This document shows positions 1 to 10,483 of a DNA stretch of 64,000 nucleotides, piece by piece; positions within the stretch are counted from its first letter, which is position 1; every line of letters begins with the position of its first letter. Below the pieces are notes generated by a model. The model worked only from the letters and a program-made list of their open reading frames with translations, was not told where the DNA came from and ran no database searches. Position numbers and translations under genes: made by a program. This stretch comes from an uncultured Sutterella sp. (GTDB lineage Bacteria > Pseudomonadota > Gammaproteobacteria > Burkholderiales > Burkholderiaceae_F). The stretch is taken from assembly GCA_900542805.1 (NCBI GenBank), contig UQOW01000007.1, positions 10,771 through 74,770 on the forward strand. The letters run 5' to 3'.

Positions 1-656
1 TTTCATATTCTCGCACATACACCAAAGGCCGAATCACGATGTTGGTCTTGTCGTCACTACGCAGAATCGGCGGCATCGCTTTGATGCGTCCGCCGTAAAA
101 TAAATTAAGCAGCAGCGTGGAAACCACATCGTCCATTTGATGGCCGAGTGCAATTTTCGTGCAACCCGTTTCGCGGGCAACACGATACAAAATACCGCGA
201 CGCAAGCGAGCGCAGAGCGAGCAGATGTTTTTTTTCGTCGGAATCAGACGCTCGATAATCGCATGTGTATCCTGCGATTCGATGTGATAGGGAACACCGA
301 CAGCCTTAAGAAAATTTTCGATTATCTGCGCATCCGATCCCGGAATGTGTTGGTCGACGTGTACGGCAAGAAGGTCGAACTTTACCGGAGCTCTTTTTTG
401 TAATTTCATGAGCGTTTCCAGGAGGACATAACTATCCTTGCCGCCGCTCATGGCAACGAGAATCTTGTCTCCGTCTTCAATCATGTCGTAATCGGAAATC
501 GCTTGTGCCGTCAAGCGCACAATGCGTTTTTCCAATTTGCGAACCGAGACGGACGCGTGTGTGTGAACGCCGGGAGCAATCTCGATGGATTTTTTTTCAT
601 CTCGGTCGTTTCTCGGCGTCTTGACAGGAACAATCCGTATGGGCATTTCTGTCATA
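1..656 (-). CDS. ttcA: tRNA 2-thiocytidine biosynthesis protein TtcA (PP-loop ATPase); N-terminal about 218 aa, C-terminus runs off the window start
   Basis: Reverse translation from the ATG at 656 gives [14 protein letters not shown]...[28 protein letters not shown]. The SGGKDS PP-loop and the CxxC pair are typical of TtcA. The ORF was not in the track because there is no in-window stop. Confidence 0.8.
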
Positions 657-1038
657 ATGCTTTCTTTCTGAAAATTTCAATGCCGATACCGGCGGCTTGT
701 TTAACGGCTTCGGTCTTTTGGGTTTGAACGCGAACGGCAAGCACTCGGGTATCGCCTAGGAGCACCGTAGCGATGTGTTCGGCCAAGGTCTCTTGCAATT
801 GAATGTGTCCGGAAGCGAGAACCGTTTCAACGGCCTTCGGAACGGCCCGATAGTCGTAGACCGAGGCGATGTCATCGTCTAAGACAGCGTGGTCTTTGAC
901 CCAGACATCAATCGTAAAGAGCATTTCTTGAGATCGAGTTTTTTCCCAGTCCACAACGCCGATGTGCGCTTGGGTTTTGTAATCGGCCAGGTGAATCTTT
1001 CGGCACTGTGTTAACAAAAATTCAGTTAAACCGGTCAT
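652..1038 (-). CDS. folB: dihydroneopterin aldolase
   Basis: 128 aa. Size and sequence (…[21 protein letters not shown]…) fit the FolB family. There is a 4-nt ATGA overlap with ttcA. Confidence 0.75.
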
Positions 1039-2120
1039 TTCAGGGCTTCCTTTATGGCACAGAGGCGGGCATTTTGTATGCGCACGGTTGCAGGTATTTC
1101 GGATGGGCTCTTTAAAAGTGAGGCAGCGTCAACGGACAAGTAGGCAGCGCGGTGTGCTTTAAGAGGCCTCGGGCTAAAGTCCGAATTCGTGAAACAAAGA
1201 GTCTGAAGAAAGTACTCCAGTCGCTCCGGTCGCCTGAGGATATCAAAGGCGTTTAAAAGATTAAGGAAATCTTCGGCACTTTGTGCCGTTCGGGCTACAT
1301 CCCGGTACTTGACAAAGAGGGTGACGGCATCGGACACATCGTTCGGAAAACGGTGATGCCGGCAAAAATGGGCCGCATGGTCTTGAGATAAGCCGGAAAA
1401 AGCGATGCTCGTACGCACAGCTAAGGGGGCGTTTCCTGCCGCGGCGTGATCTAAGGCTCTTAAAAGGGATTCGGTTACGGGGCTTTCGGCAAAGACGCAA
1501 CTCCAAAAGCCGCAGTCCTTCAGAATTCGAATCATGCGAGACGGAACTGCTTCCATAAGTCCGCGCGATACCTCGGCCCACACGCGTTCAGCCACTAAGT
1601 GGTCGGCTTCGCCCGAGGTGACCATGGTTTTTAAAAGAGTCGCCGTTTCCGGGGCTACGGTAAAGTCGGCAAAGCGCGCCGCAAACCGAGCCAGACGCAA
1701 AATGCGGACCGGGTCCTCGCAAAAGGCGGGTCCGACATGGCGCAAAACTCGCTCAGTCAAGTCTTTTTTGCCGTTAAAGGGATCGATCAGGACGCCTTCG
1801 GGTGTCATGGCCATGGCGTTGATGGTTAAATCGCGGCGCGCCAGGTCTTCGGTTAAGGTTACGGACGGCAAAGCAAAGAATTCAAATCCGTGGTAACCGT
1901 GGCCGGATTTACGTTCCGTACGTGCCAGGGCATACTCTTCGTGTGTTTTCGGATGCAGAAAGACAGGGAAATCGTGTCCGACCGGAATAAAGCCGAGAGA
2001 CAGCATCTCTTTCGGACTTGAACCGACGACAACCCAATCCTTGTCCGAAGAGCGCACATCGCGCCCGGACATCCGCATGAGTGCATCACGCACGGCTCCG
2101 CCGACCAAGTAAACCTGCAT
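1035..2120 (-). CDS. cca: CCA-adding tRNA nucleotidyltransferase
   Basis: [15 protein letters not shown]… and GHDFPV…[10 protein letters not shown] are head-domain motifs of poly(A) polymerase / CCA enzymes. 361 aa. Confidence 0.85.
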
Positions 2121-2123
2121 GGG

Positions 2124-5100
2124 CTACGCTTCCTTTCTCTGTAAGGATTGTACTGGGTGCTTGGCAAAGAATGTTTTCAGAGCAACACCGGTAGCCGAGG
2201 GTACTTCGGAGACGGCAAGCGGCGTGCCTTGTGCAACGATTTGACCACCGCCTTCGCCTCCCTCCGGGCCTAGGTCGATGACGTAATCGGCTTCGGCAAT
2301 TAAATCCAAATTGTGTTCGATAACGAGGACGGTGTTCCCGGCATCGGTCAATGCTTGCAGTACATGAATGAGCTTTTGCACATCGGCCATGTGTAGTCCC
2401 ACCGTCGGCTCGTCGAGGATGTAAAGCGTCCGAATCCGCTTATTGGTCCGCCGGGATGTTTTGGCTTTTGCGAGTTCGAAAACCAGTTTAATGCGCTGGG
2501 CTTCTCCCCCGGAAAGCGTCGTCGAAGGTTGCCCGAGTTTTAAGTATCCTAAGCCCACGGATTGCATCATGCGTAGGCCCTCGGCCACTTTGGTGTTCTT
2601 TTCAAATAGGGGTAAGGCTTCGTCGACACTCATTTGTAAGATGTCGCCGATGGATTTGCCGTGCCACAGGACCGTTAGTGTTTCTTCGTCAAAGCGCTTT
2701 CCGCCGCATGTCGGGCAGGTCATGGTCACATCCGGCAGGAAATTCATCTCGACCATGACTTCGCCGCGTCCGCTGCAAGTCGGACACCGTCCGTCCTCAG
2801 TGTTAAAGGAAAAGCGTGAGAGCGTCCAGCCGTGTTCTTTGGCGGTGTTCGTGCCTGCAAAAAGCTCGCGAATTTGTGAGAAGAAGCCCACGTAGGTCGC
2901 CGGGCACGAACTCGGAGTTTTCCCGATGGGGGTCTGGTCCACTTCCAGAACGCGGTCAACGGCATCCCAACAGGCAATCGCCTTACACCCGAAGTATGAG
3001 ACAGGATGCTCTCTCGGTGTTTTGCTGAGGCGCATTTTTAGGAGCGGTAATAGGACATCACGAGCCAAGGTGGATTTTCCGGAGCCGGAAACGCCTGTGA
3101 GTGCCACGAGTTTTCCGAGCGGAATATTAACGGTGACATTTTTCAGATTGTGCTTTACTGCTCCGCTAATTTGCATAAACACATCGCTCTTTCGAATCGG
3201 GTGACGCACTTTTCCCGAATGCGGCATCGGATTTTTCAGGCATTGCCCCGTAATACTTTCCGGGGTGGCCGTGATATCGGCCAGTGTCCCTTCGCAGACA
3301 AGAGCCCCGCCCATACTACCTGCTCCCGGACCGATATCGACGATGTGTTCGGCATGTCGAATCATGTCCTCGTCGTGTTCGACGACAATGACGGTATTCC
3401 CCTTGTTTTTTAAGGCAATCAGTCCGTCGATTAAGCGGGCGTTGTCGCGAGCGTGGAGCCCGATGGTCGGCTCGTCTAACACGTAACAGACCCCCTGAAG
3501 GCTGTTTCCGATTTGGGAGGCCAAGCGGATGCGCTGAGCTTCACCGCCCGATAGTGTCGGGGCTCCGCGATTCAGCGACAGATACCCGAGTCCGACTTCG
3601 TGCAGAAAACGAAGGCGCGTGAGGACTTCTTGAACGGCGCCTTGTCCGATGGCTTTTTCGCGGCCGGCAAGACGCATCCGGGAAAAGAACGTTAAGCAAT
3701 CGTCGACGCTCATCGAGCAGATTTGGCCGATGTTGTGTCCCCGGAAAACAAAGGACAGAGCGGTTTTGTTAAGGCGCAGTCCCTGGCAAGTCGGGCAGGG
3801 CTCTTCGTGACCGTTGAACTGTCCGGTTCCTGCACAGGTCGGGCACCAGCCTATGGGGCTGTTGTAGGAAAAAAGTCGCGGATCAGGTTCGGGAATTTCA
3901 ATCAAACAATCCGGACACATGCGCTTGGTTGTTAAATGCCGGGTTCCGGCACAGGATTCTTCAATCCCGCCGTCGGCGTAGCGCCCCCATCGGACGGACA
4001 CCAATCCTTTCCCGTAAAGAAAAGCACGGGAAAGGGCGCGGCGTAGTAGCGATTCGTTTTCTGGGGTGGCAATCAGGGTTTGGATGGCAAGGTCCACTGA
4101 CGCATTGTCAGAAAAACTGAGCCGGTCAAAATTTTGTATGTCCGCCCATGTCCCGTCGTAGCAGAAACGGGAGCCTCCCGCCTCTCGTATGAGTTTTTTC
4201 ATCGTCGATGGATAAGCCGGTTTTTCCGGACTCGACAGGGAGATGGTCAGAGAAACGCGATGTCCTTTGTAGGTATTAAGGATTTCCCGACAAATCGCTT
4301 CTTCGGTTTCCTTTATGACGGCTTCACCGCATTTCGGGCAATGCGGCGTACCGAGTTTGGTGAAAAGAAGGCGCAGATAGGGATGAATTCCGGTCATCGT
4401 GCCGACGGTCGACTTCAGGCCGCCGCGACTCGTGCGCTGTTCGATGGCTACGGTCGGGGCAATCCCGATAATCTGCTCGACATCGGGTTTGGTGGGCGGC
4501 TGCACGAGGGAGCGTGCATAGGCGTTTAAGCTTTCCAGGTACCGGCGCTGTCCTTCGGAGAAAATAATGCCGAAGGCCAGAGTGGATTTTCCGGAACCGG
4601 AAACGCCCGTGACGACCGTCAGTTTTTTCTTCGGAATAACGACATTTAAATCTTTGAGATTGTGTTCGCGAGCCCCGAAAATGCCCATGTCGCCGGATTT
4701 AGCTTTTCGCCAAACCGATTGCAGGGAGCGCCCCATGGCCGGCGGGGCTACAACACGACTCGTGGTGACGGATAGGTCGGCCATTGAAGCGCTCGGATCT
4801 TGAAATGCTTTTCGGTAGGCAGCAAGGGCCTTAGCCGTGTAGGTTGTTTTACGCGTGAGTCCGTCTGGGGTTCCGGCGGCAACGAGTTGTCCGCCCTTAT
4901 CTCCGCCGTCCGGACCCAAATCGATAACCCAGTCACTGGCGTTGATGACATCCAAATTGTGTTCAATCAGGATGACGGTTGCGCCGCCATCGACAAGACG
5001 GCGTAAGGACGAAAGGAGTTTGGTGATGTCATCGAAATGCAGTCCCGTTGTTGGTTCATCGAGAACGAAAACGTGGCCGGCCACCGATCGGAGTGAATTG

Positions 5101-7715
5101 GCTCCGGCCAAGGTCTCGGCAAGCTTTAGACGCTGCGACTCGCCGCCCGAAAGCGTCGGGAGCGGTTGTCCGAGTCGGATGTAATCCAGACCGACGTCTT
5201 TTAGGGCGTTGAGACGGTTACAGATGTCTCGGTGATTCTTAAAGTACTCCAAGGCCTGTGAGACGGTCATATCCAAGACATCGGCAATCGATACGTCGTG
5301 TTGACCGTCCAGGTTAATGGTTACCTCTAGAACTTCCGGACGGTAGCGTTTCCCGTTGCAGTTCGGACACTTCAGATAAAGGTCGCTTAAAAACTGCATT
5401 TCGACGTGCTCGAATCCCGTGCCCTGACAGGTCGGACATTGTCCGAGTGCGGAGTTAAAACTAAAGTAGCCGGCGCTGTAATTGTTAGCACGCGCTTTCG
5501 GGGTGGCTGCAAAAATCTTTCGAATGGTGTCGAAGGCATCGATATAAAGGACCGGAGTCGACCGCTTCGTGGCCGAAACGGCACTCTGATTGATTAAGTG
5601 AATGTCTCGGAGGTTTTCGCATCCGAAAACTTTCGCATCGGGAACGGAGGAAACGACCTTCCCGAAATGCCGTTGCAAGAGAGGCACGAGGGTATCGATG
5701 ATGAGCGAGGATTTTCCCGATCCGGAAACCCCGGTGACGGTTGTCAGGTGGCCGATAGGAAAACGAACCGTGACGTTGCGTAGGTTGTGCTCGCAGGCAT
5801 CGGCCACTTCAAGCCACCGAGTTTGAGTGGTCGGAGTTTGACGCGTCAGCTCGGCATCGGGACGCCGCCGTCCGCTCAAATATGCTCCCGTGAGCGTGTC
5901 GGAATGACAGAGTCCTTCCGGTGTCCCGTCAAAGACGATTTGACCGCCTTTTTCACCGGACCCCGGTCCCATATCGATGATGCGGTCGGCAGCGAGCATC
6001 ACTTGCGGATCGTGTTCGACGACAACGAGGGTGTTGCCGGCATCGCGAAGACGTCGCAAGATTCCGTTGACACGGTCCATGTCGCGCGGATGTAAGCCGA
6101 CTGACGGCTCGTCGAGAACAAAGAGCGTGTCGACAAGGTTCGTTCCGAGGGCTGTGGTTAGGTTGACGCGTTGCACTTCACCGCCTGAGAGCGTGCGGCT
6201 TTGTCGATCGAGCGTGAGATATCCGACACCGACATCCGTTAGATAATTGAGGCGAGTTAATGCCTGTTCGAGCACAAGACGCCCCGGTTCATCGAGGACT
6301 TCTTCCCGAATAACTTGCAAGAAGGCAATGAGCGACGTAATCGGCAGGAGCATCAAGTCGTGTAGTGTCAGTCCGGGAATCGAATCGATGACCTTGCGGA
6401 TTCCCGGAGCATCGTTCGGGATAAATCGTGAGCGACCGGCAAGAGCGACATCGGCTGCGGCTCGGCTTCCGATACGCCACAAGAGGGCATCGGGTTTTAG
6501 ACGGGCACCTCCGCAGGACGGACACGTGATATAGGTCCGATAGTGCATCAAAAGCATGCGGGCCGTAAAGGTGTACTTAGCTTTATCCGCAATATAAGCA
6601 AAAAAACGCCGGATTCCGTACCACAGATGTCGGTTTCCCGAGCGCCAGTTTGCGTCACCGTTCCAAACCCAGTGTTTTTGCTCTTCGGTCAGATGGCAAT
6701 ACGGAATATCCGTCGGAATGCCGGCTCTTTGAGCGCAGTCCATCAGTTCGTCATAGCAATCTGCGTAAGCGCTGCCTTTCCCCCAAGGTTTGATGCAGCG
6801 TTCGCTTAGGGTTTTGTTCGCATCGGGAATCACGAGAGCTTCGTCGATATCGATGGTGCGCCCGAATCCGTGGCACACGGGGCAAGCCCCGAGCGGCGAG
6901 TTAAAGCTGAAGGTCGAATTCGTTGCATCAGCATAGGCAATGTCGCAGGCAGCGCACTTAAGGCCTTCGGCATACGGCCAAAGCGCTTCTTGACCGTCGT
7001 CGCTAAGGACGTGGACGAGAAACTTTCCGGCAAACGCGCCTTTGCCGCTTTTAAGAGCTGTCTGCACGGCTTCGAGGCCGCGAGAAAGATCGGTTTTGGA
7101 GACACGGAATCGATCGGCCACGACGGAAAGAATCGTCCCGTCGGGTGTTTTGCGCTCGGCGTGGATTCGTGTAAAGCCTCGGGCAGCAAGACCGTTAACG
7201 GCAAGCTCGCAGTCAAAATCTTTCGGGATCAGAACGTCAAATGTGATGACAAGCCGAGGGTCGGAAGCCGCGGTTGCCCGGGAGCAAATGTCCGCCCACA
7301 TGTCCATCGGCGTCATGCGACGCACGGGTTGTCCGCACTGTTTGCAAAATAGGTGAGCTTCCTTTTCAAACAGAAGCTTGAGGTAATCATTCAGTTCTGT
7401 CATCGTCCCGACGGTCGAGCGCGACGTACGGATACTGTTACTTTGATTGATGGCAATCGCAGGCGGAACGCCTTCAATGCTGTCGACATCGGGCTTGTCA
7501 CACTTGTCGAGGAATTGACGCGCGTAGGAACTAAACGTTTCCACATACAGGCGTTGTCCTTCGCTATAAAGCGTGTCGAAGGCAAGAGAACTCTTGCCCG
7601 ATCCGGAAGGTCCGGTAATGACGGTCCACGTATTCGTCTTAATGTCCAGATTAATATTTTTTAAATTGTTTTGTCTGGCACCGCGAATGCGGATTTTTTC
7701 AGAAACTTTTGTCAT
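2124..7715 (-). CDS. tandem-duplicated UvrA-like ABC ATPase (two UvrA units fused, four nucleotide-binding cassettes, 1863 aa)
   Basis: Four Walker A motifs: [61 protein letters not shown]. Four LSGGE signature motifs. Eight Cys-pair signatures: in the first half CKQC, CAAC, CPVC and CPSC; in the second half CPKC, CPDC, CPTC and CPTC. The second unit begins near residue 930. Confidence 0.85.
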
Positions 7716-7718
7716 GAA

Positions 7719-8537
7719 TCAGCAACCGGGTTTGGCCCAGCACGGGCAGGGTTCTTGAAATAAACGCCTGTCGCTTAGGCGCAAAGCGGAAAGAGCGCCT
7801 CCCCACAGACACCCCGTGTCAACGGCAATCGTGCGGGGACGAATCACGAGTCCGAGCATGGACCAGTGCCCGAAACAGATGGTCTTTTGAACAAGCCGAG
7901 GAAACTCGAACCAGGGACGGTATCCAGCAGGCATCTTCGCAATGCCTTCGCGAATCGAGTAGTCCGGAGTACCGTCGGACTTTAAAAATCGCATGCGCGT
8001 AAGTCCATTCAAAATACCGCGAAGACGCGCGTCTCCCGTGAGGTCGTCACGGAAAACGTCGGCGCCGTACATATTTTCCAGAGCTTGTTTCCAGGTGTCG
8101 GAGCGTAATTTTTCTTGCACTTCCGAAGATAATGATCGTGTTTTTTCCAGTGACCATTCCGGCGGAATTCCGGCGTGTACGAAAACCGTGTTTTGTGTTT
8201 CGATAAGAAGCGGTCTTGCTCGCAACCAGTCAATGAGTTCGTCACGGTCGGGCGCGGTCAGGATGTCATTTAAGGTATCTTTTTTGGGGCAAGGCTTTCC
8301 TGTGGCAACCAAGGCCAAAAGGTGCAAATCGTGGTTTCCGAGAATCGATTGCGCACGTCCGGAATCGCACAGGCTCTTGACGCAGCGTAGCGTCAAGAGC
8401 GACTGAGGTCCTCGGTTGACCAAATCGCCGAGGAAAACTAAGGACGCGTCTTCGGGAAGTTGTTCCAGAAGACCGGTAAGACTTTCGAAGCAGCCTTGTA
8501 GGTCGCCGATAGCAATACACTGGGTTTGAGAAAGCAT
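7719..8537 (-). CDS. apaH: bis(5'-nucleosyl)-tetraphosphatase, symmetrical (Ap4A hydrolase)
   Basis: IAIGDLQGC…GDLVNRG…GNHD metallophosphatase motifs and typical ApaH length (272 aa). Confidence 0.85.
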   Translation of the reverse strand: MLSQTQCIAIGDLQGCFESLTGLLEQLPEDASLVFLGDLVNRGPQSLLTLRCVKSLCDSGRAQSILGNHDLHLLALVATGKPCPKKDTLNDILTAPDRDELIDWLRARPLLIETQNTVFVHAGIPPEWSLEKTRSLSSEVQEKLRSDTWKQALENMYGADVFRDDLTGDARLRGILNGLTRMRFLKSDGTPDYSIREGIAKMPAGYRPWFEFPRLVQKTICFGHWSMLGLVIRPRTIAVDTGCLWGGALSALRLSDRRLFQEPCPCWAKPGC

Positions 8538-10323: not shown

Positions 10324-10399
<76 letters not shown>

Positions 10400-10407
10400 A
10401 ATTTAAG

Positions 10408-10483
10408 GTCCCTATCGTCTAGAGGCCTAGGACACAACCCTTTCACGGTTGGTACAGCGGTTCGAATCCGCTTAGGGACGCCA
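10408..10483 (+). tRNA. tRNA-Glu (anticodon TTC)
   Basis: GTCCCTATCGTCTAGAGGCCTAGGACA…CCTTTCACGG…GGTTCGAATCC…GGGACGCCA. Near-identical to canonical bacterial tRNA-Glu(UUC). Confidence 0.9.

Follow-up and report, generated by a model that had tools for sequence, protein, structure and literature searches.

The gene discussed here lies on the minus strand of a 64-kb stretch of DNA from a gut Sutterella sp. (the window, below, means the whole of that stretch), and its 1863-residue product is almost certainly a true double UvrA on a single chain, one of a large and mostly proteobacterial family. The AccC encoded in the window is identical to MCI6631385.1, from a metagenome-assembled Sutterella sp. 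As to what such a protein does, we lean with some reserve towards the view that it is an asymmetric, single-chain equivalent of the UvrA dimer (UvrA2), which would still couple to UvrB or Mfd and act as a sensor of the kind found in nucleotide excision repair (NER).

Two UvrA protomers in one chain

The first-pass annotation of this DNA, made from the sequence alone, had described one continuous open reading frame (ORF) with two UvrA-like units and four ATP-binding cassettes (ABC), and in both respects it was right. The frame runs uninterrupted from its ATG, and we located in it four Walker A motifs (at G35, G662, G1037 and G1541), four LSGGE signatures, four Walker B motifs (DEP) and four H-loops, all four ATPase sites being essentially invariant in an alignment of 91 family sequences, which is the alignment meant wherever family conservation is given below. 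The zinc signatures had been counted as eight Cys pairs, a number that has to be revised to 12 CxxC pairs, making six Cys4 zinc modules, three per half, at the positions expected for UvrA. The cysteines of the second and third modules (Zn2 and Zn3) are 100% conserved in both halves, as is the Phe at the tip of each Zn3 β-hairpin (91 of 91 members); the first module (Zn1) of the N-half, which no more than 58% of the family have retained, is present in the Sutterella protein. The two units had also been called complete, and here a qualification is in order, since both are indeed UvrA-type protomers but the C-terminal one lacks the insertion domain of about 100 residues. Against the TIGR00630 profile the whole protein scores 1845 bits (cut-off 729.8) and against PRK00349 1875 bits (cut-off 1147), both scores being sums over the two units; taken alone, the N-half and the C-half reach 887 and 965 bits with TIGR00630, each above its cut-off.

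It is fair to ask whether two adjacent uvrA genes have merely been joined by an assembly or sequencing error, as the first-pass annotation had itself allowed, or in a pseudogene, but we now regard this as having next to no chance of being correct. Independent assemblies agree: in a cluster at 90% identity with 558 members, drawn from NCBI, ENA, Logan and MGnify, all 15 of the members listed are 1863 amino acids long. When one genome was scanned per species, at least 599 loci proved to encode full-length, collinear relatives, complete chromosomes and isolates among them (the 80 loci retained are collinear over residues ~1–1855 at 48–53% identity), and in 193 further records, of plasmids or megaplasmids, 80% or more of the double UvrA is covered. 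The ratio of nonsynonymous to synonymous substitution rates (dN/dS) was computed against two relatives; it is 0.13 overall with the one at 92% identity and 0.09 with the one at 84%, and about 0.2 even in the linker that joins the halves; judging from these ratios, both halves are under purifying selection (0.09–0.22 across the halves and the linker), which again speaks against a pseudogene. The linker is otherwise the least conserved part of the protein, with a mean top-residue frequency of 0.28 and 24% gaps. Across the family alignment there is no conserved internal start at the head of the C-half, M1010 being Ile in 67 of the 91 members, and the fusion is therefore obligate. The claim of a true covalent UvrA–UvrA fusion accordingly holds.

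What, then, do the two halves look like? The N-half aligns end to end with residues 23–971 of M. tuberculosis UvrA and is 40% identical to E. coli UvrA. The C-half, at 46% identity to the E. coli protein, aligns with residues 5–283 and 382–913 of T. maritima UvrA, and the gap between these segments means that exactly the insertion domain is missing. Alignment of each half with E. coli UvrA, which had been proposed as a check on the fusion, finds a homologue of the UvrB-binding domain in both halves and the insertion domain only in the N-half. This asymmetry is a property of the whole family: the Zn2 Cys pairs are separated by ~117 residues in the Sutterella N-half and by 113–119 in all family N-halves, as against 14–47 in the C-halves, and the insertion domain is absent from the C-half in all 91 members. 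The single insertion domain of the Sutterella protein has a dN/dS of 0.09. The halves differ also in a DNA-probing element of ATP-binding domain I, where Y64, Q67 and F68 of the N-half correspond to Y62, Q65 and F66 of C. thermocellum UvrA, residues that enter the DNA helix when ATP is bound (PMC12796330); at the equivalent place in the C-half, Q has become S in 58% of the family and F has become I in 60%.

The UvrB-binding domains call for a more careful description. With the Sutterella sequence alone, Pfam gives only a weak match to the N-half region (E = 0.06), but the family profile of that region, built from the 91 members, matches residues 129–249 of E. coli UvrA (E = 2e-15), the profile of the C-half domain matches residues 125–242 (E = 2e-22), and the two profiles match one another with an hhalign probability of 96.5%. 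AlphaFold2 (AF2) models, built for each half separately with the family alignments, reached a mean predicted local distance difference test score (pLDDT) of 85.3 and a predicted TM-score (pTM) of 0.75 for the N-half, and 82.4 and 0.74 for the C-half. In these predictions each UvrB-binding-like domain is folded, the order of secondary-structure elements being identical in the two, and the N-half domain is modelled at a pLDDT of about 90–94. Its last helix keeps D201 R202 … R212 … E215 … E/Q218 … A220 L221, the residues of a signature (D-R-F … R..E..E.AL) common to E. coli, G. stearothermophilus (Bst) and T. maritima (Tma) UvrA, and the dN/dS of this N-half domain is 0.11–0.20; the last helix of the C-half domain lacks the signature. 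Foldseek relates the N-half model to the full-length class I UvrA structures 2r6f and 3uwx at a TM-score of 0.77–0.79 and the C-half model to 3uwx and 2r6f at 0.82–0.84, and both models lie further from class II UvrA (2vf7, 7sh1) than from class I.

Each half, in other words, has the protomer fold of class I UvrA (E. coli, G. stearothermophilus, M. tuberculosis, T. maritima; TM 0.77–0.84 overall), with two ABC sites, three Cys4 modules, an aromatic tip on the Zn3 β-hairpin and the UvrB-binding fold, and the N-half alone adds the insertion domain and the Y..QF probing element. The protein is unlike class I UvrA in that two protomers share one chain, where the canonical subunit of ~940–1000 residues homodimerises; in that the second protomer has no insertion domain and, in most members, no probing Q/F; and in that the halves are not identical, each being also below the PRK00349 cut-off. 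Coordinates of these features, and of the neighbouring genes, are collected in Table 1.

Table 1. Features of the double uvrA gene and its neighbours, by position in the window
Feature	Position	Strand	Remarks
Double-UvrA ORF	2124..7715	−	1863 aa + stop codon; ATG start; uninterrupted
N-half, residues 1–965	4821..7715	−	class-I-like UvrA protomer: NBD-I, UvrB-binding-like domain, insertion domain, NBD-II (NBD, nucleotide-binding domain)
Walker A, ATPase site 1 (GPSGSGKS, residues 35–42)	7590..7613	−	near-invariant in 91 family members
Y64-A-R-Q67-F68 element, ATP-binding domain I, N-half	7512..7526	−	invariant in 91/91 members
N-half UvrB-binding-domain homologue, residues 121–253	6957..7355	−	flanking Zn1 cysteines C124/C127 and C254/C257
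Insertion (DNA-binding) domain, residues 291–397	6525..6845	−	only one in the protein; Pfam PF17755, E = 1e-10
Walker A, ATPase site 2	5709–5732	−
N-half Zn3 module and β-hairpin	5358..5438	−	tip Phe775
Inter-half linker, residues 966–1009	4689..4820	−	poorly conserved, variable length
C-half, residues 1010–1863	2127..4688	−	UvrA protomer without insertion domain
Walker A, ATPase site 3	4584–4607	−
C-half equivalent of Y-A-R-Q-F	4506–4520	−	YARSL
C-half UvrB-binding domain, residues 1123–1266	3918..4349	−	Pfam PF17760, E = 3e-11
C-half Zn2 module	3786..3845	−	insertion domain deleted; Cys pairs 13 residues apart
Walker A, ATPase site 4	3072–3095	−
C-half Zn3 module and β-hairpin	2706–2786	−	tip Phe1659
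apaH (Ap4A hydrolase), upstream	7719..8537	−	3 nt from uvrA start; PRK00166 297 bits, cut-off 176
Short CCA-adding-enzyme-like nucleotidyltransferase, 361 aa	1035..2120	−	3 nt past uvrA stop; Pfam PolyA_pol head domain
folB	652–1038	−	4-nt overlap with the cca-like gene

A proposed asymmetric sensor and the competing explanations

Canonical UvrA works as a head-to-head dimer, in which four NBDs form a saddle on duplex DNA (PMC5128194); its protomers meet through their ATP-binding-I domains, and both the DNA contacts and two UvrA:UvrB interfaces have been described (PMC12796330). On damaged DNA the two insertion domains (IDs) become non-equivalent, one being the recognition-ID and the other the support-ID, and it is to the protomer with the released support-ID that UvrB binds first, giving A2B1 and then A2B2 (PMC11985968). 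Mfd uses a surface homologous to that of UvrB (PMC7835731). In the mechanism that we favour for the double UvrA, the N- and C-halves would pair within the chain through their ATP-binding-I domains, forming an intramolecular UvrA2-like saddle that would, by virtue of this pairing, bind duplex DNA in the groove of the two NBD-II/signature-II modules and sense distortion of the helix in an ATP-dependent manner. The N-half would contribute the only insertion domain and an intact DNA wedge, with the C-half as its insertion-domain-less partner, and the asymmetry of recognition-ID and support-ID, transient in the homodimer, would be permanent here; the DNA would then be handed to UvrB, or the protein would be recruited by Mfd. 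Coupling to UvrB or Mfd is made more likely by the retention of the UvrB-binding fold, which class II UvrAs have lost. The asymmetry seen throughout the family corresponds to the one that, in a recent proposal, the canonical UvrA2 dimer adopts transiently.

There are, of course, observations that weigh against an NER-type sensor, and these are best considered together. Alone, the halves score 902 and 980 bits with PRK00349, below its stricter cut-off of 1147. In the N-half helix, the Sutterella protein has Q at the last E of the signature (E218Q). In the C-half UvrB-binding domain, 19 of 31 family-invariant positions (61%; invariant being defined as at least 97% in the 77 non-Sutterellaceae members) are changed in the Sutterella protein, as against only 3–15% in the NBD cores by the same comparison, and the dN/dS of this domain, 0.31–0.50, is the highest in the protein, that of the NBD cores being 0.06–0.10 throughout. 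One of the two putative UvrB-docking modules thus appears, on these substitution patterns, to be decaying or changing partner in the Sutterella lineage, and since the N-half carries E218Q as well, coupling to UvrB may be weakened there. Nor does gene context help: uvrB, uvrC and mfd are absent from the neighbourhood both in the window and in 81 related loci. Within the 64 kb all ORFs of at least 450 amino acids are something other than uvrB, uvrC or a second uvrA, as the first-pass annotation had correctly stated for the first two, and a tblastn search of the window with E. coli UvrA matches the double-UvrA ORF only. No LexA box of the form CTGT-N8-ACAG lies near the operon and matches across the window are below chance, with the proviso that this consensus may not be Sutterella's own. 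Finally, the literature that we searched, whose scope did not extend to two class-defining UvrA papers, contains neither a description nor an experimental study of any doubled UvrA, so that both the function of such proteins and the meaning of their conserved asymmetry are apparently unstudied.

These points lend some substance to the best of the alternatives, which we nevertheless consider unlikely, namely that the protein is an accessory paralogue independent of NER and class II-like in its action, using ATP to dislodge DNA-binding toxins, or to provide tolerance of them or of unusual lesions, without UvrB or UvrC. A UvrA-like protein that acts without NER has a precedent in Ecm16 (PMC9328131), the halves are divergent (their identity to E. 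coli UvrA is 40–46%, and when separated they fall short of the PRK00349 cut-off), and the gene has neither an SOS box nor uvr/ssb synteny, ssb not being its neighbour as it is that of E. coli uvrA. The caution of the first-pass annotation, that this might be a paralogue rather than 'the' UvrA, also agrees with what is seen in relatives. In C. metallidurans, uvrA1 (CHR1) and uvrA2 (CHR2) are listed together with uvrB and uvrC (Rmet_4549 being assigned to the doubled type from genus and replicon only), in a Cupriavidus (locus L035) the doubled gene is on chromosome 2, and in Ralstonia it is carried by a megaplasmid of ~2 Mb and annotated 'excinuclease ABC subunit UvrA'; given these secondary replicons, the doubled gene appears in both genera to accompany a canonical uvrA as a second copy. 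What counts against an accessory paralogue is that both halves keep the UvrB-binding fold, that the canonical helix signature of the N-half is under purifying selection, that the structural models are nearer to class I than to class II, and that the gene sits in no biosynthetic or resistance cluster.

The first-pass annotation had also considered a paralogue acting in drug resistance or another DNA transaction; the drug-resistance analogy, with class II UvrAs of the Ecm16/DrrC kind, is not supported, and class II membership as such can be ruled out. Class II UvrAs (D. radiodurans UvrA2, DrrC, Ecm16) share a homologous ABC/zinc core, but in them the UvrB-binding domain and Zn1 are gone and the insertion domain has been kept (PMC9328131, PMC5128194), whereas the Sutterella protein keeps the UvrB-binding fold and Zn1 in both halves and it is the insertion domain that one half has lost; the retained UvrB-binding-domain fold is what excludes class II.

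Rather less probable again, in our opinion, is a pairing of two chains through their matching halves (N with N, C with C), by which four protomers would assemble into a complex with two DNA-binding saddles. With an identity of just 38% and a difference in the interface-proximal Q/F element, the halves might prefer homotypic pairing, and a long and variable linker (the segment 960–1015 ranges from 35 to 97 amino acids across the family) would allow either topology. N:N pairing, however, would bring two insertion domains together and C:C pairing would leave a pair devoid of them, and the presence of exactly one insertion domain per chain, family-wide, is more simply explained by one asymmetric saddle per chain.

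A role in anti-phage defence, as part of a MADS-like system, is so improbable that it can be set aside: PADLOC does report mad3 (480 bits) and mad8 (207 bits), but these matches, in seven and four stretches respectively, cover generic UvrA-type NBD segments only, no defence model hits any of the flanking genes, which are housekeeping ones (apaH, cca-like, folB), no neighbour is conserved across the 81 loci, and membership of MADS was rejected for want of co-located mad genes and because the NBD matches were only partial. The general lesson is that UvrA-type NBDs match mad3 and mad8 strongly, and an ordinary UvrA could be mis-flagged as MADS if context is ignored.

To return to the single-chain asymmetric sensor, there is a bolder form of it that we put forward only as a long shot, in which the asymmetry is obligate, the N-half, with the only insertion domain, the intact Y..QF wedge and the canonical UvrB-docking helix, always playing the 'recognition' part and the C-half, devoid of an insertion domain, the 'support' part, and in which the protein would be the sole UvrA of host-restricted Burkholderiales, loading one UvrB in a defined orientation. 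Its scope would be Sutterella, where the second UvrB-docking domain would already be decaying, and perhaps Ca. Kinetoplastibacterium. If true, it would provide a natural test of the recognition-ID/support-ID and A2B1 models of NER. A single-chain UvrA would also be a convenient tool with which to take that mechanism apart, each ATPase site, insertion domain or UvrB-docking domain being mutable independently, and for annotators the message is that doubled genes should not automatically be counted as canonical uvrA.

Distribution and origins of the doubled gene

As a gene, the double uvrA is quite ordinary: it is found in hundreds of genomes, and annotation pipelines already call it UvrA. The rarity implied by the first-pass annotation has therefore to be given up, the architecture being widespread and routinely labelled 'excinuclease ABC subunit UvrA'. 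Relatives occur throughout the Burkholderiales (Bordetella, Achromobacter, Castellaniella, Variovorax, Polaromonas, Comamonas, Rubrivivax, Cupriavidus, Caballeronia, Ralstonia, Limnobacter and Thiomonas), in the Rhodocyclales (Thauera, Azoarcus) and in several Gammaproteobacteria, with isolated members in one metagenome-assembled genome (MAG) of the Nitrospirota and one of the Verrucomicrobiia. Identities follow taxonomy, at 73–94% within families and 60–77% between families, and the Sutterellaceae form a long branch at 51–57%. The nitrospirotal member (L062, Ca. Manganitrophaceae) and the verrucomicrobial one (L078) share 72% identity, and to gammaproteobacterial members from Steroidobacteraceae and Arhodomonas they show 64–68%; this closeness, both mutual and to the Gammaproteobacteria, suggests from sequence identity that the doubled gene reached both lineages by horizontal transfer. 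A doubled UvrA of 1809 amino acids (P0207) is also kept by Ca. Kinetoplastibacterium crithidii, an obligate endosymbiont of trypanosomatids with a genome of 0.82 Mb (an 816,901-bp contig), in which the NER pathway is reported to be retained, with 7–8 ORFs (PMC3616161). As for stand-alone relatives of the N-half, the sole candidate (P0263, 1013 amino acids) is annotated as a partial protein and comes from a 4.5 kb contig.

How old is the fusion? A recent tandem duplication is ruled out, since the halves are less like one another than either is to E. coli UvrA, and for the same reason the fusion, to go by these identities, is either old or joined two genes that had already diverged. The Sutterella protein is in any case one member of a much larger collection. 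When 1.84 billion cluster representatives were searched exhaustively with the N-half, there were 8752 hits at E <= 1e-30; the 150 best representatives are almost without exception ~1550–2340 amino acids long themselves, and double-length UvrAs make up more than 100 clusters at 50% identity. We took a census of domain layouts among 152 proteins, the Sutterella protein and E. coli UvrA included, with home-made hidden Markov models (HMMs) of limited sensitivity, writing A for a Walker A motif, U for a UvrB-binding domain and I for an insertion domain, with a slash where the halves join. The commonest layout was that of the Sutterella protein itself, A-U-I-A / A-U-A (48 of the 152), followed by A-I-A / A-I-A (20), A-U-A / A-U-A (12) and the fully doubled A-U-I-A / A-U-I-A (9). 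We use the first of these to define an operational family, the proteobacterial double UvrA, whose defining features (collinear alignment over the full length, a single insertion domain in the N-half, two UvrB-binding-like domains and four intact ATPase sites) are conserved in the 91-sequence alignment and found in the Sutterella protein. The A-I-A / A-I-A proteins (P0281, P0282, P0302, P0305, P0320 and others, of ~1590–1680 amino acids) have a UvrB-binding domain in neither half, and look like doubled class II UvrAs. For 110 double-length representatives, best-hit analysis of the separate halves gave no consistent picture, and because the halves of other layouts are not uniformly orthologous to those of the Sutterella protein, several fusion events among double UvrAs are likely on present comparisons.

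One further double-length type deserves a comparison. The NCBIfam model NF001885 (PRK00635), an 'excinuclease ABC subunit A' of 1809 profile positions, which we take to be the chlamydial UvrA, has a similar double length and a similar split, the Sutterella N-half ending at about profile position 921–924. The Sutterella protein differs from its members in scoring 1138.7 bits against a cut-off of 3054, and so is not one of them. Of the representatives, four were tried as candidates for a Chlamydia-type double UvrA, and none reached the PRK00635 cut-off.

Gene neighbourhood

In Sutterella the double uvrA sits in a conserved housekeeping operon, between apaH and a short cca-like gene that is followed by folB, the group adjoining rplU-rpmA-obg-proB. 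The same order, apaH–uvrA–cca–folB, is conserved in the Sutterellaceae on three other contigs (L083–L085), where a tilS-like (ATP_bind_3) gene comes next. The junctions, of 3 nt, 3 nt and −4 nt (window 652..8537), suggest from their spacing that the four genes are translationally coupled. The CCA-like protein falls below every NCBIfam cut-off for CCA enzymes and covers no more than head and neck of the multifunctional enzyme; as the match is confined to profile positions 1–209 of 409, it probably has no HD phosphohydrolase domain. A relative of 2256 amino acids (P0040) has a PolyA_pol head domain fused to a doubled UvrA, as though uvrA and the downstream cca-like gene (window 1035..7715) were expressed as a single product, which could reflect a genuine fusion, the loss of a stop codon or an error of gene calling.

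As a clue to function, a conserved operon partner was looked for and rejected, there being none family-wide and apaH, cca and folB being conserved only within the Sutterellaceae. The best recurring neighbour outside that family is a transporter of the major facilitator superfamily (MFS), at 18 of 81 loci. On the Ralstonia solanacearum megaplasmid (L082), the doubled uvrA is directly downstream of genes for an 1833-residue WGR-domain protein and an M48 metalloprotease, a context completely unlike that in Sutterella. Elsewhere in the window, tRNA-Ala(GGC) and tRNA-Glu(TTC) genes stand in tandem on the plus strand, 8 nt apart, at 10324..10483.

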